Shown: positions 3,812-61,904 of the stretch, piece by piece
How positions within the stretch are numbered: position 1 is the first letter of the stretch
Layout of the letters: each line of letters starts with the position of its first letter
IMG/VR virus record: IMGVR_UViG_3300028805_000078
Span: 32,001-96,000 of that record
From: a virus
Taxonomy: Duplodnaviria; Caudoviricetes
DNA length: 64,000 nt
Direction: 5' to 3' (one strand)
Notes under the pieces: model-generated
What the model was told of the DNA's origin: nothing
Database searches by the model: none
The model's input: the letters and a program-made list of their open reading frames with translations, nothing else
Translations under genes and position numbers: made by a program

Positions 3812-3841
3812 ATGTAATCATTCACTAATGAGCTATAAGGG
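3812..3841 (+). promoter_or_regulatory. Phage-specific 30-bp promoter-like motif, copy 1 (ATGTAATCATTCACTAATGAGCTATAAGGG)
   Basis: Near-identical copies at 24088, 46401 and 61875 (minus). All are intergenic and oriented with the downstream genes. Confidence 0.75.
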
Positions 3842-3867
3842 AAAGAAACAATATGCATATGCATATG

Positions 3868-4183: not shown

Positions 4184-5053
4184 AAACAAAAGATGCGCAA
4201 GTAAAAACTCTTTCTAAACGGGGAAAATCTCATTGAGACAACCTACCGTGCTAAATTAAAATTCAAACAAAAAGGATATAAAACATGGAAATTCACAACG
4301 GCAAATACACAATTTATTATCATCAAAACAAAATAAATAATAAAATGTATGTCGGCATCACAAAGCGTAAACCTTATATTCGGTGGGGTAATAATGGCAT
4401 TGGATATAAACATTGCACATATTTCTATAATGCAATTCAAAAATATGGATGGGATAATTTTGAGCATGTGATTTTTGCTTCTAATCTCACAAAAGAGGAA
4501 GCTTGTCATATGGAATCAATTTTAATAAATAAATTCCAAACAAACGACAAAATTTATGGTTATAATGTTTGCGAAGGTGGTGGCCTACCGCCCGTCCAAT
4601 ATGGAGAAAGAAATTACTTTTTTAACAATCATCAATATAGTGGAGAGAATCATCCAATGTATGGGAAACATCACACGGATGCAACCAGAAAAAAGATGTC
4701 AGAACATCATTATGATTCCTCTGGCTGCAACAATCCGATGTCAAAACGAGTTGTGTGTGTAGAAACTGGAGTTATATATCCAAGCGCTATTGATGCTCAA
4801 AAATCAACTGGTATTCCAAGGAATAATATAACTGCAGCTTGTCGTAAAGATAGGCAAGTTAGCGCAGGCGGATTTCATTGGAATTTTGTTTGAATTTTAT
4901 AAAAGCCTAACGACTATACCGTAAGGTAGTAGCTCTAAGTAGAGCGAAAAGAAAGAGACTGCTTATTGCAGGTGATATAGTCTGATCTATATGGCGACAT
5001 ATAGCTGTCTTTTTAAGACGGGCACGGATTAACGAACCGTGTTGAACAAAACG
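4184..5053 (+). mobile_element. Group I intron (IA-like, with P7.1/P7.2), 870 nt
   Basis: P1 TTGCGT/GCGCAA with U-G at the 5' splice site. P10 AAGAT(4190-94)/ATCTT(5054-58). P3 CTCTTTCT/AGAAAGAG. P7 GACTA(4912-16)/TAGTC(4978-82). P8 CTGC..GCAG, P9 hairpins, terminal G5053. Confidence 0.92.
4285..4893 (+). CDS. Intron-encoded GIY-YIG homing endonuclease with NUMOD3/NUMOD1-like DNA-binding motifs
   Basis: TIY..NKINNKMYVGIT..R, E and GYN motifs; 'GENHPMYGKHHT..TRKKMS'; C-terminal 'VVCVETG..YPS...SAGGFHW'; AT-rich. Confidence 0.92.
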   Translation: MEIHNGKYTIYYHQNKINNKMYVGITKRKPYIRWGNNGIGYKHCTYFYNAIQKYGWDNFEHVIFASNLTKEEACHMESILINKFQTNDKIYGYNVCEGGGLPPVQYGERNYFFNNHQYSGENHPMYGKHHTDATRKKMSEHHYDSSGCNNPMSKRVVCVETGVIYPSAIDAQKSTGIPRNNITAACRKDRQVSAGGFHWNFV

Positions 5054-7033: not shown

Positions 7034-7414
7034 ATGAAGTTTGAAGAATACTTCAATAAAGTTTGTGAAGCCTGCATTGTAAATGTAGGCGTAACTTGGA
7101 GTTCTTATCTTGAGCCTACCTATAAGATTATTCTTAAAAATCTTGAACTTGAGCCAAGTATCGTTGAGGATGTGAATTTGACGATGGATGATGTGAGCGA
7201 AATGCTTAAGCTCGAAATCGAACGAAGGCATGTTGTCACAGGGAAAGGCAGAGCTCTTAGCAATTGGATCTATGAAATTATTAACGGAACAATTGAACCT
7301 GTTGTCCAGACAGGAGAAACAGAATTGTTTAATAAGATTATTGATCTGCTGAAAAAGGATAAAGAAGAGAACGGCGTAGCCGAAGTGTCGCAGGAAGAAA
7401 ATAAGCCTGAGTAA
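7034..7414 (+). CDS. Hypothetical protein
   Basis: GGAGG RBS, 126 aa. Confidence 0.6.
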   Translation: MKFEEYFNKVCEACIVNVGVTWSSYLEPTYKIILKNLELEPSIVEDVNLTMDDVSEMLKLEIERRHVVTGKGRALSNWIYEIINGTIEPVVQTGETELFNKIIDLLKKDKEENGVAEVSQEENKPE

Positions 7415-7502
7415 TAGTATGAGACAGGATCATCCTGTCTCTTTACGGAGCTCAGGTCGGCCTGCATTCGGTTCAAGTCCGAAAGCTCTTGAAGAATTTT
7501 TG

Positions 7503-7550
7503 AAACCTAAACGTGCAAGAATTTAGAATGCTGTGCGTTTAGGTTTTTTT
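7503..7550 (+). terminator. Intrinsic terminator-like hairpin upstream of TMP
   Basis: AAACCTAAACGTGCA...TGTGCGTTTAGGTTT plus T-run. Confidence 0.6.
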
Positions 7551-7597
7551 ATTGTATAATTTAATTTTTATATAACCATCATAAAGGAGAATTAAAT

Positions 7598-10500
7598 ATG
7601 GCCGATAACATTACAATGAATTTTGAATTGACCGGCGTTACTAAAGCTATTAGCGATGTAGAGAAATTAGTTCAGGTATCTGGAGAATTAGCTGCTCCAA
7701 TGAGAGAAGCAAAGACTGCAATAGGCGGCGTAAGTGAAGAGATTAGTGCAATAAAAGAGGGATTTGATTTAAGTTCTTTGAGTTCTGGCGCTGCCAGTAT
7801 GCCAGATATGTTGCAAAACTCTATTAACGCTATGGCTCAAGCGTTATCTCAGAGTGCTAAACAAATGCAGCAAGCTATGAAAGTATCCGGAGGGCAATTA
7901 ACCGAACAGCTCCAAATCGCGCAAACATATCTTGCTGTAAATTCAAGAATTTTAAATAACAATATTCAGACTGCCCGTGCTTTATTGCATGATGTTTCGC
8001 CTACACAAAGGAGCGCCTTTAACAGTTCTTATACAACAGCGGCACAAGATGCGGCAAATGTCTTCAGGAATTTCGCAAACACTAACGGTAGCGCTATGTC
8101 TGATAGATCTTTGGAATTGATGCTGCGAAATAATAAAATCGTATCTTCTGGTGTTTCGAGGATGGCGAAAAATACCGGGGCAAAAGAAGATTTGATTTAT
8201 AAAAGTTTGGTTCAAACTGCTGCAGCGCCTTTTATGCGTCGGGAAGTAATTAAAGACATCCAAAGATTAAGCGGTGGCCTTATTGATCCTACAAAAATAC
8301 AGGCACCAAAAGGAAACTTTTATAGCAGGTTGCCGGAACAGTTCCGAGGTTTATCTACCGTTATTACTCCTTCAACTGAAGCGGACATTTCAAAGTTTGT
8401 TCGTGGTAACGGTATCAAAGCATATAAAACTATCGAAGGCAATAAGCTTTACAATGAATTGTTAAATGAGATAACCGGCAATGCCCATCGAAAAGGAAAC
8501 ATAACGCTTGAACGAGCGTTGAATGCAGCCGGAATCCAGACGCGTTTTAAAGGCGGTTCTCAAGTTGGTTTGCCAACACGAATCGACGAAAGAACGTTGG
8601 CTTATGTTGGTGGCTTTTTGCATAGGTCATTGAATAATTATCTCGAAGGAGCTCCTTCGTATCTTGCTAACATGTCGCATTTATCCGACGATGATGCTGA
8701 ACGTCTTGGTGCGAAGAACGGAACTGTTGCAAGAGAAGTTGATTCCGCCTTTAGGATTCTTGCTAAAGCGGGTGTAAAGGATCTGTTGTACACGCCGAAC
8801 GGTGCGAGGCTGCCAAGCGTTGGAAATCCTAAGAATATAAAGTACATTTACAGCAAGCATTTGGCGCCACAAGGGATAAGACCTGATGAATTTGTTATAC
8901 CTTCAGTTACATATGCAGATTTTGGTAAAGGTGTTTTGCCTACAGCAAGAGACGGATTGATTCGGTATAGTGATAGTACGAATGGCAAGACTACGAATAA
9001 AATGATTTCCAGAAACATTCTGACGGATTTGCTTGGCATGCAAGGTAATCTCACATATGGCAATGGCAGTAAAACTAATATGGGTATTCCAAAGTTAATT
9101 TACGTAGACTTTGGTGAAGATGCTTATGCGAAAAAAGATAATGGTGAATTGGATTTTGATGAAACAGGAAACGTTAAATATAATGATGCTACGAAGAAAA
9201 TAATAACTGACATGTTTGATAAATCTAAACATAGTAAAACTATAAGAGGTTCGAAATATAGTTACTCTGTTATAAAGGGTGGACCGAACGGAGACACGAA
9301 TTATGTTCCTATTTCTACTAAACATGGTTCCGTAATCTTGGCTGCTGAGGGCGATTACGACGATCCTTATTCTTATGTTAGTATGTCAAAACGCAGTCTT
9401 GATACATTTGGCGTAAATGTTTTTGACGCATTTGAAAATATGGAAGAAGTAGTAGGTACGAACAAACAGCGTGCTAAAAAGATGGACACGAGAAATAGGT
9501 CTATTACTCCCTCTATTCCTTTTGCAGAAATGCAAGGATGGAGTATTCCTGGCCGTTCGAAGACTGCAATTTTGTCAATGAAAGACTTGTTTAAACTAAA
9601 GGATGGCGATAGTGATGCTGTAGGTATTGAAGGTACGGGCATCATATCTCCTGGTTATATTCCGGATGCTGCAGTTATTAGAATGCCGGGCGTTAAAGGA
9701 TCGTTGTTGCCTGTAAATCTAAAAAATATGGTGCAAAAAGTTTATGGAAATGTTGAAAGCCTATATGCACCAACTGTTACAGCTTCTGACGACATGAAGA
9801 AAGCATGGCATACAGGTGGCATTGATGCGGTTGTTAAACAATTTGGAGATAGTGTACTGTCTAATGGTCAATTTGTTGATGTTCTTAAGATGGATATGTT
9901 GTTGAGCGATGACTTGCTTAAGAGTTCTTTTTATACCAAAGGAATAAAAGATGGTGCAACGCATGAACAATTAGTTGATAGATTTTATAAAGTACTTGAG
10001 TTTATGGATTTATCTGGCAAAAACAATCCGCTTCAAGGAATAAGAGCTGTGCAGACTGCTGCAGGTTTTCAATCTCAGAAAGATGTGCTCAGTAATCAGG
10101 TTGCGCAGTATCTTAATATGGACTTTGATACTGCGAGCATGAACCAAAGCAGGTGGACCGAACATATTAACAAATTGAAATATAATGATCAATATGCATA
10201 CGATCAACTATTTAAACACGAGATAGACAAACAAGAAGATGTAATGGCGGCTATGCTCAATCCGGATAGTCAGATAGCAAGGAAAAGAAGAGAAGCTATT
10301 GCAAAAGCAGAAGAAGACAGGATGTACGGACGGCTATTTGGTGAGAACGAATTTATGATGGGCATGGCGGCTTTGAATCCGTTTGATTTTGTTAAAGTGT
10401 TGGCAGAAAGAAACGGCAAAGGGCAAAAGGGGTTAAATGTTGTCAATAAAGAATGGTTTGATAAACTGGGTCTGACTGGTAAAGGTGGAAAAGCTGGTAT

Positions 10501-13500
10501 TGCTGCTGCATTAGGCGGTTTCGCATTGGCATCCAATATTGCTGGTCTTCGATTTCCTAATAACTTCGGTGAGCAATTTCCTTTATTGAACAATAAAGAG
10601 TATATTGATTCTTTGAAAGAATTTGGAATGTCTCCGAATGCAATCTATATGAATGCTGCAACGTTGCGTAAAATGGGCACCGGAGATTTCGACGGAGATA
10701 CAGTACAGCTGATTAAAGGAAAATATGCGGATATTATAAGGCAGACTTTTGAAAATAATAAAGACCTTATAAAATGGGATGAATACGGCACAAGAATCGG
10801 AAGATTGGAAGAACCTAAAGATGTAGAAGAGAATAGGCCAGTTAATCCTGAAGATTGGGCTCAATATCTTTATCGACAGGCAGCGGCGAGGTTCAGGCTT
10901 GGACGAATCAGTAACGCTTCGGGCGCGATAGGACAGGTTTCGTCTAATGATGTACTTAGATCACTATATGCCAAAGGTGCGCTTGATTTGGCTGATCAAT
11001 ACGATATTGATACTACGTGGATTAAAACTGGTGTAGCTGCAAACTGGAGCAAAAATGCAAACAAAGTTAAACAGTATTTAGGCACTCCGTTCTCCTCTGT
11101 ATTTAAAGATATGATTGGCGCTGTTGCCTCTGGCGATTATTCGAAGTTCGGTGATCTATCAAAGGTAAATATGCCTAGTATATATAATGCATCGTCTATA
11201 GCGTTGATGGAAGAACTGACGAGATCACCGTTAAGTTCAAACGCCGTAGACCAATTGCTGAAAGCTCAGGACAGTATTCAGAACCTGTTAACGCCTGAAC
11301 AAATGAAACAAGGGCATGGTACTGCGTTTGAAAGAGCTCGCACCGAATACTTTAGGGCAAGAAATAAACGAATCGCAAACGCTATAACCGGCCGCGGCTT
11401 TATACCATCGCAAGAAGACGATGATGCACTCGAAGCTTTGTATGCCAGTTATCGTGCCAGCGCTTATGAAACATTCAGAAATTCCAAGAGTTTAGGAATA
11501 ACACAAGATGAAAAAGATAGAATAGGGCGAGAATTGAGAATACAGGAAGAAATACATAATGCATATAAAACATTTGGTTTAAGTCATGAAAACGTCGAAA
11601 AAGGCTTGGGGTATTCTGGATATGTTAAAAATAATGCTGGTAATTATGTTGCCAATAATGCATATACGCAAGGTCAGTTAGATGCAAATCCAGATCTCGA
11701 TAAAGTTAATTATGGTACAGCATTAACGATGGGCGGAACTTTGGCTGAAGCCGGAATACAAAGCACAGTACGCGAAAGACAGGAAGCTGAAGCCGCGCAG
11801 TATGCGAGAGATACATTGTTTGGAACTAATCCTCGAAGATGGTCTATATCTAATCTTAGATTATACAGAAGAAATGCAATAGACTGGTACAACCATACGG
11901 TTAATGATGCCGATATAGGCAATCAAGGCTTCGATCCTTTTGATACGGCGCTTGGTTCAGCCGTTCATAGTAGACTTGAAAGTATTATTAATGCGCGGTT
12001 GCAAAAAGATCTTGCATTGTCGGAGCCTGAGATATTAAAAGGCGTTGAAAGAAAAGAGCGTAAAGATAATGGAACAGTGGAAAACAATTTAATACCTCTT
12101 TTAAAAGAAGCTGGATTAAAGAATTATTTTAATGAAAATGGAGAATTGGATTTTCAGTTCCATGTAGATGATGCAGCTAAGCTAAATAAAGCTATTGAGT
12201 TTGTTAAACTTGCAAGTTCTGCGGACTTTTTGAAAGATGAAGATATTGTTGCCAGTGAATTTAAAACAACATTAGATTTAGGCCAATATAAACATAGTGC
12301 ACGCAAAGGTCAGGATATTGCAACTATAGGTTATGCTGATTTAGTCACATATCGTCATGATAAAAATCATCCTGAAAACAGCGGTTTCATTATTAATGAA
12401 TTTAAATCACATGAAGCAAACGATGACGGCCGCGAACAAACTGGTGTATATGGATTAAGTATTGAGAAATTAATCCAAGCCGGAATGATTAATGTAGATA
12501 AGCTGCGTGCAAGATATGGTGATAGTTTTAACCCAAGAGTTGTAGGCATCAGAACTTTTGGCTACTTAGATGAAAATGGTGCGCCGATGATTATTCCATT
12601 TGGCGAAGGAACTGAACAGAGACAAAAAGCTCAGGAACAAATGGAAGCTTTTGGTAAAGATGTTTCTAAAATTGAAGAAATGGCATTCAGCAAAGAAGGT
12701 CTTCGAGCCGCTATAATGGCAGGAAGGCAAGACATTGTTGATGACGTATTTTCATTTGTGCCAAAAGTATATAAAGATCAACTAGAAGCAGAGATTGGTT
12801 CGGACAACAGCCGCGAAAGTCTGCATAAAGCACGAGGCGCATTATTAAGTGATGAGACACGAAAGCAAGATGCGAGAACAATAGCTGAAGCATTTTCTTT
12901 GAGAAAAGACGTAGATACATATATCGATCAGCTTGACAGTATGTATTATGAGCTGAATCGAGAAGGTATCGATGCCCCGAAAGTAAAAGATAAATGGGGT
13001 TTGAAATGGTCGCAGATAAACAGTTCTTATGATAATAAACTGCAGGAATTTATAAATAGAGGTTTGACTTCAGAATCAGAGGAAATAGTTTCGATTAAAC
13101 GTGCACGTGATAGAAATATAACAGCCTATAATAGTAAATTACTTGAGATGGCTCCAAAGGATTTGTCTGATTTAAAGGACCGGTTGAATGATTCTGTTTC
13201 GAATATAGGAAAGAGTAGGTTTGTTTCAGAGAATGAAAAATATAAAGAAAAGTTGAATCTGATGATTGAAGAACAATCTTCTGCTTTGAATCAACTTGAA
13301 AAGAATAAAGACCAATACGCTGGAAATGAAGATGTTTACGAAAGCTCTTTGGCAAGAGCTCGTGCCAATTTAGAGGAAGTAAAACAATTAAGAGATAGCT
13401 TGGTTGAAAACTCTGATATACATTTAAAGATTAATCTCGAAGGCGACGCATTGCGCGATTTAAAACAGGCTCAATCGATATTACAGCAATTTGGATTTAA

Positions 13501-16500
13501 TGCGGATAATGAAGGTTATGCAAAAGAATTAGCAATGCACAATCTAAAGAACACGCAAATTTCAATTCTTGAATCGTTGGGCGCAAAAACAGTTGACGAA
13601 CAAGCCAATCTTTTAAAGAACATAAAAACAAATCCAGATGCATACAAAGATCAATTATCTCCTGATTTGTTGAAAGTATTGAATCTTGAAGAATATGATT
13701 ACGATAGATATATAGAGTTCCAGAAACAACGAAAAGAATTGCAAGATAGATATAATAGAGGAATTAATGAGGATCGTCAAAGATATTTTGAAGAAGATTT
13801 GATGCACAAAGCAAATAGTATCAACGTTAGTTCAGGAACAATAGATCAATGGCAAATTAGTTCTTCGCGTTTGAATGATAAATATAATTCTACAAGAAAA
13901 CTATATGAACAAGTAAATGGACTGTATTCTCAAAGAACGGATTTAATGCCGGGTGACGTAGAGTATTTAAATAATTTAAGAGACTCTGTTGCTGAATATG
14001 AGAGACAGTTGTCTGTAATGCAAGATGCTATTGAACAAGCTCAGGAGAATCGCGATTGGTATAAAAAGAATATAACGGACAGGCAAGATGTTCAAAGGAT
14101 AGCTGATATTAATCGTAAGTATGAAAAACAGATATCTCAAAGAAATCAACCTCGGTTTGGTAATGGTTTACTTGGTTCATTCGAAAAAAGATTATACGCT
14201 ATGCGCGCCGAAAGAGACGACAGAGAATATGCAATTAGCCAATTAACAGAACAGCGCATGCAACAACAAGCTATTGCAGACAGATATACAGAGCTGAAAG
14301 GCAAAAATGGTTATAAATTTTCAAATGAAGATCAGGATAAACTTGATGCCGCCAGCAGAAGTATAAATGAACTGAATGCTCAAATCGCCGGTGAACAGAG
14401 CGCTTTAGAGGGAATTAGTGGTGCCTCCGGTGTCGCAAAGGCTGCGATGGGCGCACTCGGCGATGCTTTCTCCCGTCTATCGTCTATGTTTGGCCGTCGT
14501 ATCTTTATGAAACTTCTCTCTGAAGTAACCCAGTTCATGAAGCAGTATGATACGGCTATGACAAATGTACGGATGATCACGATGAAGACAAGCGAAGAGA
14601 TGGATCAGGTCGGGGCAAGCAACTTCGTTACTGCGCGTAGGCTGAAAACTGATGTTGTAACGGTTGCCGAAGTTAAAGCTGGTCTTTATCGCCAGGGTCT
14701 CTCCGATGAGGAGGTTGAAGACAGAACAGATCAGGTAATCAAGTTTGCGAAGGTTGCTGGCATCAAGACGGAAACTGCGAGTAAGATTATGACTACTGCG
14801 CTTAAGAACGGGCTCGTCGAATCTGCACAGGAAGCAATGGACGTTCTTGCTGCATTGGGTGACAGCGCGGCTACGACTGCTGACGAAATCCAGAAGGCGC
14901 TTCAGAAGGTTGCGGCTACGGCGCACAGCACTGGTATGGAGTATAACGAACTCACCGCGCTTCTGACGGTCGCGCTTGATAAGACGCAGCTCAGCGGCAA
15001 CGTAATCGGTACAGCGATGAACACAATCATGACCCGTATGCGCAGGGTTAATGAAACAGATTATGTGAAAGCAAGCAACGGTGAGATCACTACAATCAAC
15101 GATGTAGACAGAGCGCTCAGCAGGGTCGGAGTAAGTATCCGTGAAAACGGTAAAATGAAGGATACTGTTGAAATCCTTAGGGATCTTAGCAAAGTCTGGG
15201 GTACTATCGATAACGATATGACAAAACAGAATATCGTGTATGCGATGGCCGGTCGAGGAGCGGCCGCTACAAATACGTTGTATTCCGTACTTGAAGCATT
15301 AGGTGAAGATGGCGGAGAAGCATATGAGAAAGCATTGCAAACTGCGATGAGTGCAAATGGAACTGTTGATGAGAAGTATACTGCATATCTTGACAGTTAC
15401 AACGCATCGCTGCAGGAGCTGAATACGAGTATCGATACTCTTGGAAATACGATTATATCGAGTGGCATTGCACAATTCTTTGTTGATTTTGCAACAGATG
15501 TTGCCTCACTTCCCGGCTTAATTGCTATTGCATTACCGGCAATTACAAAGATGATTACTGGAATAACTGTTGCCACCGGTGTAATGAAGACATCGACTGC
15601 AGGTATAATTGGTTTTGGAGTTGGAGCGGTGGCCGCGGCTGGGTTTGGTATCTACAAATTAATTGCTGATGCACGAAAAAGAAGAGAAGAGCAAAATCTT
15701 AGAAACGAAGATTTGAGCAATATTCTTAATACAAACGAACAACAGAATTTGCAAAAACAAAAAAGCAAAATCGAATCATATTACGATACAATTGAATCGT
15801 TCTACGATAAGTATGGAAACAGTGCAAACATTACGGAGGTTGCTGGGCAAAAAGAAGTAGAAGAATTTGAATCTGCCGTAAGTAATTTGAGCACTACTCT
15901 TGGGACTAAATTTAAAACTAATATAGCCGATGCTTTATCGGATATGGGTAAGTTCAAAGATTTAATTGAAGAAATAACAAAAGAAGTAAATGATGAAAAA
16001 GCTAAAATTTCAAAAGAACAAGTAACGTTAGCTGCGCAAGGTAATGTGTCTTTTGGCAGAAATGTTTCTGCATGGGGTGGTTTATCTAACATAGGTACGC
16101 TTGCTCCTGGGTATGATATGTTAGATGCTATTTATATGCAATCGTTAGTTGACGCTGGTTTGATAAATGGTTATACTGTCAAAGGAGAATTAATAAACGG
16201 AAGATCTTTTGGCTTAGAAGATACACGAGGAAACACTAAAACAGTTTGGGGACCACATGCAATAAATGAAATTAGATATGTTGATGAATTAGTTGGTCAA
16301 TTGTACAATGGCGCTAATCAAATTGGTGATGCTCAGAATGTATTAAGGGCGAATTTAAAGAATCAAATTGTTGAATATAATGATAAATATGATTTAGGGT
16401 ATAATGAGATAGAGAATTTTACCGATGTTCAAATTGAAGAAGCTTTAAAGACTATAGCTGCATATTCCTATCTCGAAAATTTGATATCAAAAAGTGATGA

Positions 16501-24087: not shown

Positions 24088-24117
24088 ATGTAATCATTCA
24101 CTAACGCACTATAAGGG
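24088..24117 (+). promoter_or_regulatory. 30-bp promoter-like motif, copy 2 (ATGTAATCATTCACTAACGCACTATAAGGG)
   Basis: Repeat of the motif, upstream of the Dit/Tal/fibre genes. Confidence 0.75.
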
Positions 24118-24249
24118 AAAGAAAAGAAAAATAATCCTCTTAAATCAGGTAGATTTTAAGAAGATTATTAAAAAGATTTAAGAGAATAAATCATAAGCCG
24201 CGTCATTAAAAGGCGCGGCTTTATCTATAACAAAAGGAGGTGAAGTGAT

Positions 24250-25329
24250 ATGCAATGCAGTTTCTCATTCTGCGGAAAAGATGTAACAGATATCGGACTG
24301 AAATACGCTCCCGATAACTCGAATACATACATTTATAATTCTGCAGAAACAAACATACAGGAACAAACATTTGAAGGGCACGACGGAGGATACTTTTATG
24401 GTGTAACAAAGCAACCGAAGGTATTCCAGCTTCGTTGTTACTATGAAGACGAAAGTGTTCTAAATGGTTTGATGACAAGGATATCTCATATGTTTAAAAT
24501 TGGGCGAAGCGGAAAGCTCGTGTTCACAGTGCGTCCTTGGTTATACTATGTGGCAACGGTTGTAGATGTTGATACCTCAAAACTTATCAATGCTAAAAAC
24601 GGACTGGTACTAATTACAATGAAAGCGTATTATCCTTTCGGAAGAACTGACGTTAAATATATCGATAAAGATGATCCGTATTCTGATGATATGTTAATGA
24701 ACAGTGCAATGTTCGAAGAGGATATTAATCCTGTTTGTTCGATAGGAACATCAACCTCTTCCCTATCGCATCCGTTGCTTATATATAATGGCGGAACAGA
24801 AAGAGCTGCCGTTAAGGTGGATATAGCCGGAGATGTTGGAAGCGGTGTAACAATCTATAACGAGACAACCGGACAGGAAATGGAATTCATGGGGCTTCAT
24901 GAAGGCAGTACTTCTGAATACGTTGAGTGTGATGGATTAACAGGTAATTGCTATTGGGTATCAAACAACCAAGCAAAGAACGGAAAGAATGCATTCATAT
25001 ATCACTCACAAGGATTTATAGAACTCGAACCCGGTTACCCGCTCGTAAGAGATATAGATATTAAAACAACTGCTTCGAGTAATATTATAGAAACGGAGCT
25101 CAACGATTTTACTGAAGATATGATAGATCACTACATTTATGCAGACGGAGAGTTTAGAAGGATTACTTCAATTTCTGAAGATGGTAAAAGTATAAATGTA
25201 GATTCGAATTGTACGAATACAGCTGAAGAGCAAACCGTTGTAGCGAAAATGAATAGAATATTTGTGACGCCTGATACAACAATGAACCTGAGTTATCTTG
25301 CGTTCAAGTATGCGCATACGTTCAGTTAA
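24250..25329 (+). CDS. Distal tail protein (Dit-like)
   Basis: First gene after TMP; 'FSFCG...IGLKY...EGHDGGYFYG...GKLVF..RPWLYY...ITMKAYYPFG' pattern. Confidence 0.8.
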   Translation: MQCSFSFCGKDVTDIGLKYAPDNSNTYIYNSAETNIQEQTFEGHDGGYFYGVTKQPKVFQLRCYYEDESVLNGLMTRISHMFKIGRSGKLVFTVRPWLYYVATVVDVDTSKLINAKNGLVLITMKAYYPFGRTDVKYIDKDDPYSDDMLMNSAMFEEDINPVCSIGTSTSSLSHPLLIYNGGTERAAVKVDIAGDVGSGVTIYNETTGQEMEFMGLHEGSTSEYVECDGLTGNCYWVSNNQAKNGKNAFIYHSQGFIELEPGYPLVRDIDIKTTASSNIIETELNDFTEDMIDHYIYADGEFRRITSISEDGKSINVDSNCTNTAEEQTVVAKMNRIFVTPDTTMNLSYLAFKYAHTFS

Positions 25330-25341
25330 GGAGTGTATGCT

Positions 25342-28300
25342 ATGAAAAACAACAGAAAACTGAAACTTAGTATTTACGATTACTCAGGCAATGAGGTTTG
25401 TCCTATATATGATAGTGAAGTACAAGTTCGAGGTCAGGCAACCGATGTCATTTGCAAAGCGGAGCGAAACGGCTGGCGTGAGTTTAGCTTCAATCTTCCC
25501 GGCGATGATTATCGTGCAGAATATGTGCGAGCCGATTATAAATTAAAGGCTATAGATGATTACGGAATTGAATGGTATATTATTACTCAACCGAGAGTTA
25601 CACATAGCGGCAAAAGTAAAAACATATCCGTAACTGCAGGACACGTATGCCAGCTTTTAAAGACAAAAAACATGGCCCTCGAATTCAGTGATGATGAAGG
25701 AAATAACGTAGGTACTTGTGCGCAGTTATTAGCTACTGCTCTTGATGGAACGGGATGGGAAGTAGGAAGTGTAGCTGAGTTTAAGGAGAAAGACGGAAAC
25801 ACAATTAAAGTTCGCTCATTAAATGCTTCTTCAAAGACGGGAGCATTTAAGCTCGTCAGTATGATTTGCGAACTCTTCGAAGCGAAACCTATTTACAGAA
25901 GCAACGTTGAAGTTGTTGAAAACGGCATTAAAACAATTCACAAAGTTGTAGACGTAAAACCTATGAATCCGTTCAGCGAAGCAAAAGAAGCAATATATGA
26001 TAAAGTTGCTACATATGCTGACGGGGAAGTACTCGAACTTCATTACGGCAAAAATGTATCAAACGTTTCGCGCACATTAAAGACAGACAACCTTGTAACT
26101 TGTTTATATGCATATGGTGCATACGGAGATACCGTAAGTAAGTATTGCAGCATTCAGGAATGTAAGCATACAGAATTTGAATTTACATTAACAGCGCCAT
26201 TGACAAGCGGAACGCAGTATTACTTCACTGTAACAGACGATGCGAATGTTTCAATCAGCAGAAGTTTTACACCTTCGCAAAGTGTTGCAAGCGGAACGAA
26301 ATTGATATGGTCCCTAATGGATCGCGCTTCAATGAGTTATATCTGGGACGAATCAAAGGCGAACGATGAAGCCGCAACGCATGCTTATCGTGTTTATGAA
26401 GGCGCTCATGGCACAGAACTTCCTGCAACTATAACAACAAAGCGAAATGAGGTAACAAACGTATTTCCGTTTATAATGGATTACAGTTATTATCTTGATT
26501 GCGGATTGTTTGCTGATAGCATGCTCAATAAGCTTTCGTGGTTTCAAAGAAAGTCTCCTGAATATCTTAGTACTGTTAATGAAAAAACTACTGATTATAC
26601 GACGGACTGGCTGGCGTTGACAAATGCAATAGGTCAGATCAACTTCGCAAAGCTTAAGTATACATCCGTTCAAAACGATGATGGAAGTATAAGAATAAAT
26701 CTTGATAATGACAAGATTTTTTATCGTACTGACTACGATGCAAAGCGACATTTTAAATGGCGCAATGCAAGAAGCCTCAAAGATAACGGCGATCCTATTA
26801 ATAACGAAGCTGCTGTTGTTTATGCCGTGCATAATACAAACCCTTTAACATATGACAAGTTCTATTTAAAGAAAGTAAATGGTGAAACAGATCCGTTAGT
26901 TGTAGGAAGCATCGACGAAGAAGACATAACAAACATAACGCTTTGGGGCGATTACAGTAAGTTTAGCAATAATGACGAGTTTTATCTGTTTGAAACAAAC
27001 GGCGTCAATGGTTTACTTGGCGCAAAAGAAAGCGCCTACGAAGCTCTTGTAATCAGTCTTGATTCAGCGCTCAAAGAAGTTACTATGCAACATCCTGTAT
27101 TCTTTTCTAAGAGTCAGCCTGTTATCGATGAATCTGTTACAGTTCCATCTACGAAGCTCGATATTTACAAGCCTGAATGGGCTAACTTTAATCGTGAATA
27201 TGCGTGGTGGTATGAATACAATGATACCTCTTCGCCTGGCACGCTTCATTTTTGTTATTGGGCCGATGGTGACAGGGATTGGCATGTTGTTTATGTTAGC
27301 AATAATGAACCGAATACTGCGTCCTCTGGATCGTATTTCTATAATTGGCGAACGGCAAAACTATATCGCAGAACTAATGATAGATGGATACACCTCGATA
27401 GCGACGATGACGAAAAAGTAGCTTCTAAGTTTGGAGTTGTGTATGGCGGATGTCTTACCAGAGACAAGCTTTATATTGGAGAGTATCAGACATATACTTA
27501 TGAACCAAATGAAACAATCGCTGCCGGTAATTGGTACATGCCTACAGATTATCTTGGATATTGGTTATTTACGGCAGGATGTGAAAGTGATAAACTTGAA
27601 TACGATACCACAACTGGATTTATGACTGTGTATCCTCACGATCCTAATCTCTCCGAAAACACAGTAGAAGTTAAAAACGCTAGATTCGATAATGTTTTTT
27701 ACCATAAAGAGAATATTCTCGATACGATGACTGTTGAAGAAGGTGCGATTAGTACAGCTACAGGAGGAGACATAGAAGGAATTTGTTACAGATGTAATTT
27801 TATTCCTTTGTATTCGAATCTTACTTATGCTTTTTCGAATTATAGCGGCACGTATACAATCTATTACTATACGCTAAAGCATAATTATATAAAAAGCGAA
27901 GTGTTTCAATCATCGTCGAATATTGTAATTCCAAACAATGCGCGTTACATTCGTATTGCTTCTTCGAATAATTTTGAAGATATGACGGCGCAGTTTATTG
28001 CTTGGAATCGTTCGATTATATCAGGCGAAGAAACGTATTATCTGCTTGGCTCGCCTGTTGGAACCGGAGAGTTAAAAGGTATCAATGCTCAAATTGCAAA
28101 TCTTAAAGAGTATGGAGATAAAACATATCTTGTAGATATACCCGCATTACAAACTGCCCAGGAAGAATATAAGCAGCAGGAATTGAATCTTAAAGATGCT
28201 CTCGGCGAATTATATCGCGAGAGTAAGTGGCAAGATTCTAAGTATGTAGACGGTGATGAAGATAAGCTTTATTCAGATGCGCTTGACACACTGAAGGAAG

Positions 28301-29304
28301 TAGCAAAGCCAGAAGTAACTTACAATATTAATTTCGTTGATCAGTATTGTGTAGATCTTGATGCATATGGTTCAGATCTTCTTCGCTGGCCGGACTTTGA
28401 TACAAACAGTGCCGTGCATTTAATCGATCCGGATATTGGTGTTAATTGCTGGGCGTATGTTGATACTACAAGTAAGTGTTATGATGACTCGCGTAAGACA
28501 ACGATAACGATTAATACGAATCTTAACACGGCAGCACAACATTCTTTTACTGATATTCTTACTAATATTGCTAATGTATCAAGTCAGGTAAAAGCAAAGG
28601 ACACGATTTATGACAGGGCCGCGAATATAACATCAACAGGTAAGTGGACGGCGGAGAAACTCGAAGGCACTATCGATGCAAACAGGTTGAAGATAACCGG
28701 TGGTTCTTCTACGTGGTATACTGACAAAAACGGCAACATGGTGTTTGAAGCAGCCGATGGCTCGGGTGCTATGATGCTCACTGGCAACGGAATGGCTCTT
28801 GCTAATGCGCGCAATAAATACGGAGAGTGGATATGGCGCAGCTTCATGAATGGAAACGGCGCTACTGCTGATGAGATAGTAACTGGCACGATGAGCGCTG
28901 AAAGATTGCAGGCTGGTTCTATCACAACTGATAAAATCAGTTCATCTTTTGGTGAAACACTTGATCTCTCGAGCAATAAAGGAATAAATCTTAAAGTTTC
29001 TTCGATAAAAAACGAAATAGAAAATAAGGTAGAAGATTTAGTCGGATATAGAATGGAAATTATTTCTACGTCAGACATTCTTTCTTCCGATATACAAACA
29101 ACTACTCTTTTTGCGCGTGTATGGCATGGCAGTGAAAACGTTACAGATTCAATTCCTGCATCAAAGTTCGCGTGGAAACGTGTCAGCAGTGATTCAACGG
29201 CTGACAGAATATGGAACGAAAATCACGCAGGAATTAAAACATTCACTTTGACTACCATGGACGTGTTGTACAGTGCGACGTACACATGTGAATTATCAAA
29301 ATAA
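25342..29304 (+). CDS. Tail-associated hub/Tal-like minor structural protein
   Basis: 'ERNG..EFSF.L', 'YGKNVSNVSR...DNLVTCLYAYG', 'PEVTYNINF', 'FMNGNGATADEIVTGTM'; follows Dit. Confidence 0.8.
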   Translation: MKNNRKLKLSIYDYSGNEVCPIYDSEVQVRGQATDVICKAERNGWREFSFNLPGDDYRAEYVRADYKLKAIDDYGIEWYIITQPRVTHSGKSKNISVTAGHVCQLLKTKNMALEFSDDEGNNVGTCAQLLATALDGTGWEVGSVAEFKEKDGNTIKVRSLNASSKTGAFKLVSMICELFEAKPIYRSNVEVVENGIKTIHKVVDVKPMNPFSEAKEAIYDKVATYADGEVLELHYGKNVSNVSRTLKTDNLVTCLYAYGAYGDTVSKYCSIQECKHTEFEFTLTAPLTSGTQYYFTVTDDANVSISRSFTPSQSVASGTKLIWSLMDRASMSYIWDESKANDEAATHAYRVYEGAHGTELPATITTKRNEVTNVFPFIMDYSYYLDCGLFADSMLNKLSWFQRKSPEYLSTVNEKTTDYTTDWLALTNAIGQINFAKLKYTSVQNDDGSIRINLDNDKIFYRTDYDAKRHFKWRNARSLKDNGDPINNEAAVVYAVHNTNPLTYDKFYLKKVNGETDPLVVGSIDEEDITNITLWGDYSKFSNNDEFYLFETNGVNGLLGAKESAYEALVISLDSALKEVTMQHPVFFSKSQPVIDESVTVPSTKLDIYKPEWANFNREYAWWYEYNDTSSPGTLHFCYWADGDRDWHVVYVSNNEPNTASSGSYFYNWRTAKLYRRTNDRWIHLDSDDDEKVASKFGVVYGGCLTRDKLYIGEYQTYTYEPNETIAAGNWYMPTDYLGYWLFTAGCESDKLEYDTTTGFMTVYPHDPNLSENTVEVKNARFDNVFYHKENILDTMTVEEGAISTATGGDIEGICYRCNFIPLYSNLTYAFSNYSGTYTIYYYTLKHNYIKSEVFQSSSNIVIPNNARYIRIASSNNFEDMTAQFIAWNRSIISGEETYYLLGSPVGTGELKGINAQIANLKEYGDKTYLVDIPALQTAQEEYKQQELNLKDALGELYRESKWQDSKYVDGDEDKLYSDALDTLKEVAKPEVTYNINFVDQYCVDLDAYGSDLLRWPDFDTNSAVHLIDPDIGVNCWAYVDTTSKCYDDSRKTTITINTNLNTAAQHSFTDILTNIANVSSQVKAKDTIYDRAANITSTGKWTAEKLEGTIDANRLKITGGSSTWYTDKNGNMVFEAADGSGAMMLTGNGMALANARNKYGEWIWRSFMNGNGATADEIVTGTMSAERLQAGSITTDKISSSFGETLDLSSNKGINLKVSSIKNEIENKVEDLVGYRMEIISTSDILSSDIQTTTLFARVWHGSENVTDSIPASKFAWKRVSSDSTADRIWNENHAGIKTFTLTTMDVLYSATYTCELSK

Positions 29305-37965: not shown

Positions 37966-38970
37966 GTGACGCAATTGTCACGAACTATCTCACAACTTGC
38001 GGCTGGCACATGCGTCTATGTTGATGAAACTATCGACGGCGCGGTCGTGCATACGCCATATATCTATCTCGGCCTTGATGAAAGCGGCAACGCAAGGCTG
38101 CTCAGGGAAAAGGCCGCAACACAAAAGAGAATGCATTCCTCGAACGTAGCTTCATACAGCGGCTGCGAAGCGGACGTCTGGCTTGAAAATGAAACAGACG
38201 GATTCCTTTCCCGTTTTGACGCGGCTACGATCAACGCGCTCGTAAACACGAGTATCAAGTACACGGACTTTACTTTAAATCAAGAACAGACGGCACAGAT
38301 AGTTACGATCCAGCGGCGGTGCTTTCTTTTGTCGTACACCGAAGAAGGCTTGGCCGCCACGTCTGCAGGCGACGAAGGACAGAGTTATCTCGCAGCACTC
38401 AAGACGTATACGCAGCAAACTTCGGGCGACGATGCTCGCATCGGTTACAACGAGAACGATTCTGCTGTCTACGTTTGGATGCGGTCAGGTTACTCACCTA
38501 CTAATTTCCGCAACATCGGCATGAACGGTAGCGCGGGCAACGGCAGTGCGTCGTCCGCAGTCAGCCACATTCGCCCAGCGTTATCTGTTGCGCCAGCGAC
38601 GATCGTTAGCGACGAAGGCGCTGAAGCTATCTTCCTTCTTCCCAATGGACGCCGAACAACGTGGGACATCGAATATAGCTGCAGCCTTGGCACATACTCC
38701 GCTCCCCCTGTTAAAGCCAGACTGTTTTTTGAACATGAGTACGTTCACGATTTTCTTGAAATCAAGGCGTGCAACAATTACGCGGATGCAGAGCCTACCT
38801 GGGTAGAACCGATCAATGATTCGCTCGTTTTCAGATTCGGTACGAATACTACAACAGGAACGTACGAACTCGGTGTAAAGATCCACGCAACTGGACTTAC
38901 GAAAGACATGTGTATCACAGAGCCGATCATGATAGCGGAGGTCGACAATTCTGTCGCTCCGGCTACTTGA
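37966..38970 (+). CDS. DUF6273-like protein (family of DGR target proteins)
   Basis: 'Y..C.AD.WL', 'R.FLLS..E', 'VWMRS.......G.......A......RPAL', C-terminal 'CNN..D..PTW'. Confidence 0.7.
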   Translation: MTQLSRTISQLAAGTCVYVDETIDGAVVHTPYIYLGLDESGNARLLREKAATQKRMHSSNVASYSGCEADVWLENETDGFLSRFDAATINALVNTSIKYTDFTLNQEQTAQIVTIQRRCFLLSYTEEGLAATSAGDEGQSYLAALKTYTQQTSGDDARIGYNENDSAVYVWMRSGYSPTNFRNIGMNGSAGNGSASSAVSHIRPALSVAPATIVSDEGAEAIFLLPNGRRTTWDIEYSCSLGTYSAPPVKARLFFEHEYVHDFLEIKACNNYADAEPTWVEPINDSLVFRFGTNTTTGTYELGVKIHATGLTKDMCITEPIMIAEVDNSVAPAT

Positions 38971-38992: not shown

Positions 38993-39136
38993 ATGAGTAT
39001 TTTCTTTAAACGAAACGCAGAGAATGAAGAGATGAAAGACTTCGAAAATGATGAAGTATATGTACTGATCAACGGTGAACTTATTAAAACTGAAGTTCCT
39101 GATGATGATGAAACGGAGAGTGAAGACAATGCCTGA
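38993..39136 (+). CDS. Small acidic protein (47 aa, not in ORF track)
   Basis: AAGGAG RBS; MSIFFKRNAENEEM...; overlaps the endolysin start. Confidence 0.5.
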   Translation: MSIFFKRNAENEEMKDFENDEVYVLINGELIKTEVPDDDETESEDNA

Positions 39137-40085
39137 TACTATTAAACTTGGAGATAAAGGTAAATTTGTAAAAGCCGCCAAGTATTTGAGCGGCTTTTCT
39201 GATATCAAGCAAGCGTCTGAAGATTTTGACGAGACGTTTAGTGAGTATATTAAAAACTGGCAGCGCGTCAATAATCTCGAACAAGATGGTGTAATTGGAG
39301 AAAAGAGTTGGGAGACACTCGCCGATAAAGCCCCTACCGTTTCAACTTCTAAGAACCGCAAGAGCGCGGCTACGTGCGCGCTGCAGGAACTGCTTGATTG
39401 CGAAGCTGACGGCATTTGCGGTCCTAAAACGAAAGCCGCAATATCTGCTTATCAGGCAGCGAACGATCTTGTACTTGACGGTATCTGCGGTAAAAAGACA
39501 TGGCGTATGCTGCTGACCGGAAAGAAGGATGAAGCTATTGTTTCTTCCGGCGCAGACAACGCTGTTCAGCCTCCGAACTTCAAGCAGTATGATTCAAGGT
39601 GGGCAAGCAAGATGTATTCGAACCACGGCGATAAATCGCAGACGATGAAATCTTCCGCTTGTGGTCCTACTTCGATGGCGGATATCGTAGCACAGTGGTG
39701 GGACGTCAACATTACGCCTTGGGATCTTGCTCAGCTGTCTATGCAGTGGGGAACCCGCACTTATGACAGCGGTACGAGCAGCACGTTCTTTAAAAAGATC
39801 GCCGCACAGTACGGCGCGTCCAAGTATATCACAACCTCTTCGATCCAGTCCGCAATCGCCTGCCTGAATGCTGGCGGTTACGTTGTCGTATGTTTCGGCA
39901 AAGGAACGAAGGGTAAGAGTTCGTATCAGAAATGGACGACAGGCGGGCACTACTGCTGCATCTGGAAATACGACGGCAAATACTTTTATATCAACGATCC
40001 CGCGAGCGCGAAAGCCGCTCGTGCAAAAGGAACGTATGACGAAGTACTTGACGCCCGAAAAGGATTTTATTGCTTTTATAAATAA
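39129..40085 (+). CDS. Endolysin: two peptidoglycan-binding domains plus C39-like cysteine peptidase
   Basis: 'DGVIGEKSW' and 'DGICG.KTW' PG-binding repeats; 'KQYDSRW...SACGPTSMA...GGHY...INDP'. Confidence 0.8.
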   Translation: MPDTIKLGDKGKFVKAAKYLSGFSDIKQASEDFDETFSEYIKNWQRVNNLEQDGVIGEKSWETLADKAPTVSTSKNRKSAATCALQELLDCEADGICGPKTKAAISAYQAANDLVLDGICGKKTWRMLLTGKKDEAIVSSGADNAVQPPNFKQYDSRWASKMYSNHGDKSQTMKSSACGPTSMADIVAQWWDVNITPWDLAQLSMQWGTRTYDSGTSSTFFKKIAAQYGASKYITTSSIQSAIACLNAGGYVVVCFGKGTKGKSSYQKWTTGGHYCCIWKYDGKYFYINDPASAKAARAKGTYDEVLDARKGFYCFYK

Positions 40086-46400: not shown

Positions 46401-46430
46401 ATGTAATCATTCACTAATGACCTATAAGGG
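46401..46430 (+). promoter_or_regulatory. 30-bp promoter-like motif, copy 3 (ATGTAATCATTCACTAATGACCTATAAGGG)
   Basis: Followed at once by a GGAGGAAGAGG/CCTCTTCCTCC hairpin. Confidence 0.75.
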
Positions 46431-46498
46431 GAGGAAGAGGAGGGATCCACCTCTTCCTCCTACGATTAATTATATGTTAAGAAAGGTAGGTGTTCGTC

Positions 46499-49065: not shown

Positions 49066-49971
49066 TTATGCGAGGACTGCTCGCATTTCTTCGAGTGCAT
49101 CTCCGAAGAGATGTATGTAGGTGTTATAGGTTATCGTTACCGAACTGTGTCCGAGCAGGCGCGAAAGGATCTTGACATCGCAGCCGCGATAATAGCAGTT
49201 CGTTGCGAACGTATGCCTAAAAACATGCATCCCCATATAAGGAACGTTTGCCTCTTTACACGCAGCCTTCGTATTCTTTATCAGAACTTTGTAAGACAAC
49301 GGTTCCGTTGAATCAGGATTGAATACGAAAGTTCCGTTCTTCGGCAATGAGTTCAGAATACGCTGCGCATTTGTACTGAGCGGGATAACGCGCTTGCTTG
49401 CGAGTGATTTCGGGGAATTCTGCACTTTTGATCTCTCGCCGCAATTCAGGTTGATCAACGTCTTTGAAACAGATACGGCTTTTCTTTGCCATTGTATGTC
49501 TGCCCATTGAAGAGCGAGCACCTCCCCTACCCTGAGTCCTGTTTCGATCATGAATGCAATGACAGGATAGCCGCGTTTCTTTCCGGAATCAAGAACGTTT
49601 TTCAAACGCTGCTGTTCTTCTTCGCTGTAAGCGATGATCTCCTTCTTCGGCTTCTTTACAACGCACTGAGAAGGAAGCGTCACCGCTTCGTATAACGGCC
49701 GAAGAACAAGCCCCTCCGCGTTCGCCCATCTTAGAAACGCGCTGATCAAGTGAAACTGCTTCTTGATCGTTGTCTGCGCGTAGCCGTCGTCTACGAGATC
49801 GTTGATGTACGATTGTATATCGTTGCCTGTAAGCTTCTCGATATCGCATTCCGATATTCTGTATTTCTTCATCAGATCGTACGATGTCTGAAGCCGCAGA
49901 TATGTAGACGGCTTTACACTTGTTCGTTTGTGCGTCTCCATCCACGATAGAATCGCCTGTGACAATGTCAT
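49066..49971 (-). CDS. int: Tyrosine integrase
   Basis: SAM-like N-domain; catalytic R (TGLRVGE), K (PKS), HxxR (HVFRHTFAT), LGH and Y. Start at MTLSQ after GGAGGT. Confidence 0.92.
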   Translation of the reverse strand: MTLSQAILSWMETHKRTSVKPSTYLRLQTSYDLMKKYRISECDIEKLTGNDIQSYINDLVDDGYAQTTIKKQFHLISAFLRWANAEGLVLRPLYEAVTLPSQCVVKKPKKEIIAYSEEEQQRLKNVLDSGKKRGYPVIAFMIETGLRVGEVLALQWADIQWQRKAVSVSKTLINLNCGERSKVQNSPKSLASKRVIPLSTNAQRILNSLPKNGTFVFNPDSTEPLSYKVLIKNTKAACKEANVPYMGMHVFRHTFATNCYYRGCDVKILSRLLGHSSVTITYNTYIHLFGDALEEMRAVLA

Positions 49972-50011
49972 AGTGTTACCTCCTTCGGTAACGCCAAACC
50001 GATGCATGTAT

Positions 50012-61824: not shown

Positions 61825-61874
61825 CGGTTCACCTTCTTTCGTTCCGTTTATTCTCTTTTTTATTCTTTTTCTTT

Positions 61875-61904
61875 CCCTTATAGGTCATTAGTGAATGATT
61901 ACAT
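61875..61904 (-). promoter_or_regulatory. 30-bp promoter-like motif, copy 4 (identical to copy 3)
   Basis: Reverse complement reads ATGTAATCATTCACTAATGACCTATAAGGG then AAAGAAA, upstream of the phosphoesterase gene. Confidence 0.75.

Follow-up and report, generated by a model that had tools for sequence, protein, structure and literature searches.

A predicted two-barrel RNA polymerase followed by a RecB-like nuclease in the giant tape measure protein of a ruminant-gut siphophage

The closest described counterpart of the system reported here is found in the Thermus phage P23-45, in which a virion RNA polymerase (RNAP) is fused to the tape measure protein (TMP) gp96 of 5,002 amino acids (aa); P74-26, G20c and TSP4 carry the same fusion (Chaban et al., 2024, PMC10770324; PDB 8H2M/8H2N). 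According to the model for P23-45, the expelled TMP forms a DNA channel, and the polymerase remains at this channel, where it transcribes the pre-early genes during DNA entry (PMC10770324). gp96 also carries metallopeptidase and transmembrane domains, and the phage pairs its virion polymerase (vRNAP) with a non-virion polymerase (nvRNAP) (PMC10770324). The association of TMP and polymerase in Thermus phages was presented as unexpected (PMC10770324). In the literature that we searched, P23-45 and close relatives of it are the only phages for which TMP-fused polymerases are described. The supplementary files of PMC10770324, of which Supplementary Data 4 lists phages with two polymerases, contained no other TMP fusion in a term search. 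A further point of reference is YonO, which has been described as a DNA-dependent RNAP (Forrest et al., 2017, as cited in PMC10770324). Here, we analyzed a stretch of 64,000 nucleotides (the window), comprising bases 32001-96000 of the single 116,061-bp virus record IMGVR_UViG_3300028805_000078 (Caudoviricetes). An earlier note on this DNA had proposed a two-barrel polymerase inside a 5,483-aa TMP and had pointed to gp96 of P23-45 as a precedent, which indeed stands (PMC10770324). We put at roughly three in four the probability that residues ~200-1345 of this TMP form a catalytically competent polymerase that is delivered by the tail and transcribes the first phage genes.

The TMP is encoded in one uninterrupted frame (Table 1), with ten PHROG tape-measure families matching between aa ~2060 and 2800 (phrog_28 and phrog_4211 at E ~1e-23). 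A PhageMin_Tail core domain, hydrophobic segments, which are probably membrane-inserting, and a location directly upstream of the genes for the distal tail protein (Dit) and a tail-associated lysin (Tal) are all present, as in the TMPs of siphophages. By these sequence features, the open reading frame (ORF) is a genuine TMP of a siphophage-type tail module, in agreement with the placement of the polymerase motifs in the earlier note. The "TMP-like N-terminus" that had been reported in front of them found no support: the first ~200 aa match no family, and a recognizable TMP core only begins at aa ~2060-2350. A bovine-gut contig from an independent assembly spans window positions 7400-13333, and thus the start of the TMP as well as the polymerase and nuclease described below, with 246 substitutions and not a single insertion or deletion, which excludes an assembly artefact as the origin of the fusion. 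Separately, two metatranscriptome libraries from sheep gut contain contigs that match portions of the TMP gene (window 7400-15000) with 99-100 % identity, which is compatible with expression but no proof of it, DNA carry-over being possible.

All polymerase motifs listed in the earlier note were recovered at the residues and nucleotides given there. In the order of the chain, these are EGTGIISP (aa 678-685, nt 9629-9652), IRMPGVKG (aa 694-701, with R695 at nt 9680), LSNQVAQYL (aa 831-839), LRFP (aa 984-987, with R985 at nt 10550), GDFDGD (aa 1029-1034), LGRISN (aa 1101-1106) and WIKTG (aa 1141-1145). The filter pattern of Chaban et al. (2024, Suppl. Data 4), [RK]xP x{20,100} DxDxD, is found as R985-F-P987, followed by 42 residues and then D1030. 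Of the 386 six-frame ORFs with 60 aa or more in the complete 116-kb genome, just three contain DxD[GA]D; besides the TMP, they comprise two YonO/RdRP-like polymerase genes (RdRP, RNA-dependent RNA polymerase). The catalytic loop of the TMP aligns with GGADYDGD in the RdRP-family polymerase that the phage itself encodes, and the region of the three N-terminal motifs aligns with DGCGMALPG...IRAPWIKG...LNYQMTQAL of a stand-alone YonO-like enzyme.

Relatives of the module were collected using HMMER with aa 201-1400 against 1.84 billion representative proteins. The search matched 46 proteins, all of them from metagenome assemblies, and 19 of these are full-length giants (3,899-5,923 aa) that align end to end, at the same N-terminal position, with 29-36 % identity. 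DxDGD is present at aa ~970-1060 in all 19 giants and also in each homolog fragment covering the site. Further loci were identified in IMG/VR (six, on contigs of 52-151 kb) and in metagenome contigs (seven); those in IMG/VR were found with the profile of the TMP N-terminal family (alignment A3), while a scan with the single protein gave none. By tblastn, the 50,697 deposited phage genomes contained no match to the module, gp96 included. Likewise, no relative turned up in 185,579 representative genomes of bacteria and archaea, which thus supplied neither a prophage copy nor a host assignment.

When the 19 N-termini were aligned with MAFFT, a set of invariant positions emerged. Besides the residues of the catalytic loop and of the LRFP barrel (Table 1), these are G676, G679, P685, G686, P689, R695, K700 and G701 in the beta-like barrel, and R1093, Y1135, T1140 and K1143 further downstream. 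R695 and K700 would be candidates for the catalytic basic pair of the beta-like barrel. Both the rarity of DxD[GA]D among the ORFs and its invariance in 19 homologs indicate that the motifs are more than a chance occurrence. The earlier note had made its case depend on the conservation of DFDGD in homologous TMPs, and in this respect the alignment is in full agreement with it. One could suppose that the fold is an exapted and catalytically dead polymerase with a structural or DNA-binding role, for example as a plug or a holder of the DNA end, and the far divergence of the sequence from characterized enzymes together with the lack of a direct family match by hidden Markov models (HMMs) would fit such a role. 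However, all three aspartates, RxP and the beta-like barrel's R/K pair stay invariant at ~30 % overall identity. Such constancy is to be expected of an enzyme selected for catalysis and not of one in decay. We consider a dead polymerase highly unlikely for this reason, and a catalytically competent one remains the preferred reading.

The predicted structure leads in the same direction. An AlphaFold2 model of TMP aa 201-1400, calculated from a 27-row alignment (model residue 1 corresponds to aa 201), reached a mean predicted local distance difference test (pLDDT) of 78.5 and a predicted template modeling score (pTM) of 0.79, with a disordered tail at aa 1345-1392. In a Foldseek search against the PDB, the top matches were exclusively two-barrel single-subunit polymerases, namely RDR2 (4e-9), QDE-1 (1.6e-8), gp64 (4.9e-4) and gp96 (1.7e-2). 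VIA-align gave a very similar picture: QDE-1 (2j7n) was aligned with Z 17.3 over 528 residues (4.9 Å), RDR2 (7roz) with Z 16.9 over 511 residues (3.8 Å), P23-45 gp64 (8f72) with Z 12.1 over 437 residues (4.5 Å) and P23-45 gp96 (8h2m) with Z 10.4 over 388 residues (4.7 Å), in the last case pairing model residues 270-962 with 327-1077 of the chain. The top 17 entries are all single-subunit two-barrel RNAPs and unrelated folds begin at about Z 7. Next in the ranking are dozens of beta-prime/Rpb1 chains (Z 7.3-7.9), which align on model residues 707-962, and the double-psi barrel of the p97/NSF N-domain matches model residues 716-845. gp66 of phi14:2 (6VR4) is not among the structural matches listed.

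Within the model, the motif residues occupy the expected places: strands of the chain's first barrel carry EGTG and IRMPGVKG, the DFDGD loop is placed between strands of the second, and LRFP sits on a strand 42 residues upstream of the loop. The long helix that follows could be bridge-helix-like, judging from its position. As modelled, the ~1,150 residues behind a leader of ~200 aa are a complete-looking single-chain two-barrel RNA polymerase, and the two double-psi barrels that the earlier note had anticipated are found in a fold of the QDE-1/RDR2/YonO type.

To place the module among the known families, we relied on profile comparisons. The family phrog_8308 represents YonO; its control search matches Bacillus subtilis, presumably the YonO protein of the SPbeta prophage. 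Searches of the phage's own genome with phrog_8308 and PF05183 hit stand-alone genes only and not the TMP, and phrog_8308 directly matches the 5,898-aa TMP frame of one relative (E 2.4e-8). When the TMP family was compared using hhalign with the two stand-alone polymerases of this phage as single sequences, weak local matches were obtained precisely where they would be expected, covering the barrel-A region for the 835-aa polymerase (E 4e-4) and the barrel-B region for the 736-aa polymerase (E 3e-4). Ten stand-alone YonO-like proteins, taken from this phage and from five relatives, were combined in an alignment (A4), which A3 matched with a probability of 97.7 % and an E-value of 1.6e-12; the 486 aligned columns extend from aa 531 to 1138 and contain both barrels in order. 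The module is thus a remote relative of the YonO/QDE-1-type enzymes and belongs to another family than gp96. It follows from this difference that the fusion to the TMP arose either independently or very anciently. Weak sequence hits of aa 1-1500 to Spy, Ripcord and GH3 were discarded as noise.

The polymerase is not the only predicted enzymatic domain of the TMP. Behind a low-confidence linker, the order of motifs typical of the RecB family, E...GxxD...(D/E)xK...QxxxY, is present as E1554, D1581, E1601-x-K1603 and Q1614-xxx-Y1618. S1416, W1430, G1453, G1578, D1581, K1603, Q1614 and Y1618 are invariant, and H1457, E1554 and E/D1601 nearly so. Across 30 homologs, YS.S..W(Y), G.A.H, E1554, G..D1581, (D/E)1601-x-K1603 and Q1614-xxx-Y1618 are kept, with a loss of the domain in one homolog. 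An AlphaFold2 model of aa 1395-1720 (pLDDT 67.7, pTM 0.72) was aligned by VIA-align to AddB (Z 13.0 over 243 residues), AdnA (12.4) and the Cas4-family protein ACE1 (11.3), followed by MGME1, RecE, Dna2 and Cas4; all of the top 20 rows are nucleases of the RecB/PD-(D/E)xK class, and Foldseek returned AddB at 2e-4. At the sequence level, Pfam PDDEXK_1 scored 18.8 bits on this region, under the cut-off of 22, and a blastp search against the IMG/VR frames gave no match at E 1e-3. The segment is, by prediction, a nuclease domain of the RecB family. It could serve in the degradation of host DNA, in the processing of DNA ends or in an action against host defence.

For the genomic setting, we extended the analysis to the complete record. 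Its ends (1-407 and 115655-116061) are 97 % identical (396/407), which suggests a circular or terminally redundant genome of ~115.7 kb that was assembled with strain variation. Owing to this 407-nt overlap the genome is probably complete, and the completeness estimate of CheckV is 95 %. Two further polymerases are encoded as stand-alone proteins (Table 1). The second of them is split: the 736-aa piece corresponds to residues 291-1015 of a 1,033-aa homolog with 50 % identity, the 185-aa piece corresponds to an N-terminal part of the same homolog, and the gap of ~1.2 kb between them holds an unrelated ORF. An intron or the insertion of a homing endonuclease may account for this interruption. In all five IMG/VR relatives examined, at least two stand-alone phrog_8308 genes are present, indicating that the combination of tail-borne and free polymerases is a stable trait of this phage group. 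Two gene arms diverge from genome position ~24.3-24.9 kb, the rightward one being structural and the leftward one consisting of a 79-aa ORF and then the gene of the 835-aa polymerase.

A promoter-like motif of 36 nt with the consensus ATGTAATCATTCACTAATGACCTATAAGGGAAAGAA occurs in nine copies (up to four mismatches) in the 116-kb genome. Every copy lies on the strand of the gene block it precedes, the motif ends in GGG, and one copy (24088-24123) sits between the TMP and Dit genes. The motif looks like the promoter of a single-subunit polymerase and could be read by any of the three polymerases; its pattern fits transcription driven by phage polymerases. In the divergent control region (genome 24600-24860; 4600-4860 in locus L004), we additionally noted a short tandem array with units resembling CAACTTCATTTC, together with three GATGTAATCTC(C/T)GAA boxes, around two copies of the motif. 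A sigma-70 scan of the same region found nothing above chance and no sigma-70-like leftward promoter.

The occurrence of one promoter-like motif family only, against three phage polymerases, bears on the template and promoter specificity of the module. It would be easier to understand if the polymerase were active in another role, such as priming or copying the incoming genome, non-specific RNA synthesis in the manner of QDE-1, or processing of DNA ends together with the nuclease, which is fused right behind the polymerase in almost all homologs. The best structural matches, QDE-1 and RDR2, are RNA- or single-stranded DNA (ssDNA)-templated enzymes and point the same way. In contrast, the nearest relatives by sequence are YonO-like phage enzymes, with YonO itself cited as a DNA-dependent RNAP, and the sole characterized TMP-fused polymerase is a promoter-specific transcriptase (PMC10770324). 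On this evidence, we regard such another role as unlikely and favour a tail-delivered transcriptase of the first phage genes.

Table 1. Features of the TMP locus and of the associated polymerase genes. Positions refer to the window unless marked as genome positions.
Feature	Position	Strand	Evidence
Giant TMP gene, 5,483 codons/aa	7598-24049	+	single frame; PhageMin_Tail and PHROG TMP families mid-protein; Dit, Tal next
Conserved N-terminal polymerase module, aa ~203-1345, including N- and C-terminal helical parts	8204-11632	+	end-to-end alignment with giant homologs; model ordered at residues ~40-1144
Core aligned with solved structures of single-subunit two-barrel RNA polymerases, aa ~428-1212	8879-11233	+	VIA-align model range 228-1012; Foldseek E 4e-9 to 1e-8
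Beta-like double-psi beta-barrel (DPBB-B), aa ~655-839; carries EGTGIISPGYIP, I-R695-MPGV-K700-G701, LSNQVAQYL	9560-10114	+	model beta strands 456-631; invariant residues
Beta-prime-like double-psi beta-barrel (DPBB-A), aa ~913-1045; L-R985-F-P987 and metal loop	10334-10732	+	structural alignment; R985, P987, M1026, G1027, G1029 invariant
Putative catalytic loop G-D1030-F-D1032-G-D1034	10682-10699	+	D1030, D1032, G1033, D1034 invariant in 19/19 full-length homologs
Long helix after barrel, aa ~1084-1111, invariant R1093 and LGRISN; putatively bridge-helix-like	10847-10930	+	model helix 884-911; within range aligned to beta-prime chains through their bridge-helix region
Low-confidence linker between polymerase and nuclease modules, aa ~1345-1392	11630-11773	+	pLDDT <50 at model residues 1145-1192
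Predicted RecB-family PD-(D/E)xK nuclease domain, aa ~1410-1700	11825-12697	+	conserved motifs; AlphaFold2 fold match
Canonical TMP core, PhageMin_Tail, aa 2348-2552	14639-15253	+	Pfam PF10145 E 6.5e-27, 95 bits vs cut-off 33.2
Hydrophobic segments, TMP aa 2628-2689	15479-15664	+	Kyte-Doolittle 19-residue windows >1.6
Distal tail protein (Dit)	24250-25329	+	phrog_33 E 2.9e-18; Pfam Sipho_tail 22.8 bits, slightly below cut-off
Tail-associated lysin/tip protein (Tal-like)	25333-29304	+	Pfam Prophage_tail PF06605 43 bits vs cut-off 31.3
Stand-alone YonO/RdRP-like two-barrel polymerase, 835 aa, DYDGD at aa 474	genome 21764-24271	-	Pfam RdRP 54 bits vs cut-off 23.8; phrog_8308 E 1.4e-23
Second stand-alone YonO-like polymerase, 736-aa C-terminal piece, DNDGD	genome 1017-3227	-	phrog_8308 E 7e-160
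Second stand-alone polymerase, 185-aa N-terminal piece	genome 4422-4979	-	residues 101-283 of 1,033-aa homolog, E 2e-41
Cys-rich 328-aa ORF, unrelated, between the split-polymerase pieces	genome 3382-4368	-	weak DUF2726
36-nt motif copies, window	3812-3847 (+), 24088-24123 (+), 46401-46436 (+), 61869-61904 (-)		
36-nt motif copies, further	genome 24673, 24832 (+); 15217, 104303, 115230 (-)		
Tyrosine recombinase/integrase	49066-50007	-	Pfam Phage_integrase 89 bits and SAM-like N domains

How a polymerase in this position would act can be outlined by analogy with P23-45, from which tail packaging, ejection and host-independent transcription are taken over. Through its fusion to the TMP, the polymerase would become a component of the tail and, at infection, be expelled into the host envelope. 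In siphophage tails, the C-terminus of the TMP is located at the tail tip. An N-terminal polymerase would for that reason leave last, adjoining the leading end of the DNA. Retained at the DNA entry channel, it could transcribe the first phage genes without the host RNA polymerase. Likely targets would include the gene of one stand-alone YonO-like polymerase, which would then continue the programme, and the 835-aa polymerase gene, near the start of the leftward arm, would be a natural first target.

Several results weigh against this proposal. Searches with aa 1-1500 against Pfam, PHROGs and PDB sequences (phmmer, and also an HMM built from fragments) detected no polymerase. In hhalign, the family compared with the single sequences of gp96 and gp64 of P23-45 yielded nothing significant, with only the G.DFDGDT loop being aligned (E 0.022, Prob 2 %), and the functional analogy to gp96 therefore rests on architecture and fold. 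The genome yielded no second class of repeated promoter-like motifs of comparable strength, such as a dedicated pre-early polymerase would be expected to have. Furthermore, by our own estimate, the lumen of the tail tube is probably too small for a folded polymerase of ~1,100 residues together with the nuclease, which would probably be present in several copies, and N-terminal processing of the TMP before assembly is possible.

The last two points lead to a different explanation, according to which the module is cleaved off or excluded before tail assembly and works late, as a free enzyme in the producing cell, so that the fusion would ensure co-expression only. Processing of TMPs is known in other phages, and the disordered linker between the modules would be in line with it, as would our estimate that polymerase and nuclease, as one globular module of ~1,500 residues, are unlikely to fit folded in the tail tube. 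Against it stand the two free polymerases, which are already present for intracellular use, and the position of the module, which precedes the ruler part in ~19 giant homologs and 13 loci, as it does in P23-45 (PMC10770324). We judge a cleaved-off late enzyme to be distinctly unlikely, and retain delivery of the polymerase by the tail as the better account.

Near-identical DNA was detected in sheep and bovine gut metagenomes of several studies. By analogy with P23-45, a phage of the sheep and cattle gut thus probably injects its own transcription enzyme. The tyrosine recombinase gene (Table 1) is the sole hint of a temperate lifestyle. Among the other genes, a homing-endonuclease-like ORF (window 4285-4893, +) lies inside the structural block and matches phrog_314 (E 6e-32) as well as GIY-YIG-type families. 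An endolysin-like protein (window 39075-40085, +) combines PG_binding_1 repeats with a C39-like peptidase domain, and the neighbouring ORF 37966-38970 contains DUF6273 and matches a Hoc-like decoration PHROG. In the window and three flanking loci, ARAGORN identified a single tRNA, a tRNA-Thr (TGT) at genome 29718-29791 (9718-9791 in locus L004, +).

The distribution of the module has consequences beyond this phage. With ~20 giant homologs of the same architecture, the strategy is probably much commoner than the literature suggests, and giant "hypothetical" TMPs of metagenomic phages are worth screening for enzymes. The finding raises the questions of how a module of ~1,500 residues is stored in or passed through the tail tube, which role an injected RecB-type nuclease plays and how labour is split among three related polymerases. 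For synthetic biology, the conserved 36-nt motif provides candidates for orthogonal pairs of polymerase and promoter. A more far-reaching idea, for and against which we see about equal reason, is that these mesophilic gut phages represent a second, independently evolved lineage of TMP-fused virion RNAPs, derived from YonO-type and not from P23-45-type enzymes and coupled in one ejected polypeptide to a RecB-like nuclease, in which two stand-alone paralogs and one class of 36-nt promoter complete a self-contained programme of three polymerases. If true, the tail ruler would deliver the first transcriptase together with a nuclease that processes DNA ends or degrades host DNA.

In comparison with the known systems, YonO of SPbeta (phrog_8308) shares with the TMP module the collinear series DGxG..PG, IRxPxxKG, LxYQxxQxL, RxP, DxDGD and IGxVSN. 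In contrast to the free enzyme YonO, the module is embedded in a structural virion protein; sequence identity is ~15 %, and the TMP itself gives no phrog_8308 or Pfam RdRP match. QDE-1 of Neurospora (2J7N) and the plant enzyme RDR2 (7ROZ) are the best structural matches, covering 511-528 residues and both barrels, whereas the identity is as low as 10-12 %; both belong to eukaryotic RNA silencing, use RNA or ssDNA as template and have no viral structural context. The similarity to QDE-1 and RDR2 is one of fold and shared ancestry and not of biological role. Virion polymerases embedded in a very large ejected protein are also represented by gp66 of phi14:2, a crAss-like phage, and by the vRNAP of N4 (as cited in PMC10770324). 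These phages are, however, podovirus-like and carry the polymerase in the capsid and not in a tape measure, and the N4 vRNAP is T7-like instead of two-barrel (as cited in PMC10770324).

The closest parallel is P23-45. Both gp96 and the protein described here are giant TMPs (5,002 and 5,483 aa) with a single-chain two-barrel RNAP in the N-terminal ~1,200 residues and a DFDGD metal loop, and the predicted fold matches that of gp96 with the Z-score of 10.4 over 388 residues reported above. Both phages also encode stand-alone polymerases of the same superfamily that are not virion-borne. The connector between the barrels is similar in length, with 67 residues in gp96 (PMC10770324) and ~75 here (model residues 640-712), which may be taken as a hint of a flat, clamp-less shape as in gp96. 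In contrast to these common features, there is no significant sequence similarity between the two modules, the one described here being closer to the YonO/QDE-1 type. The polymerase is followed here by a RecB-like nuclease, whereas gp96 carries metallopeptidase and transmembrane domains. Two stand-alone polymerases are found here compared with one in P23-45, and the habitat is the mesophilic ruminant gut instead of hot springs. What is new relative to P23-45 is therefore the polymerase lineage, the added nuclease, the set of three polymerases and the mesophilic gut habitat, while the strategy is the same.

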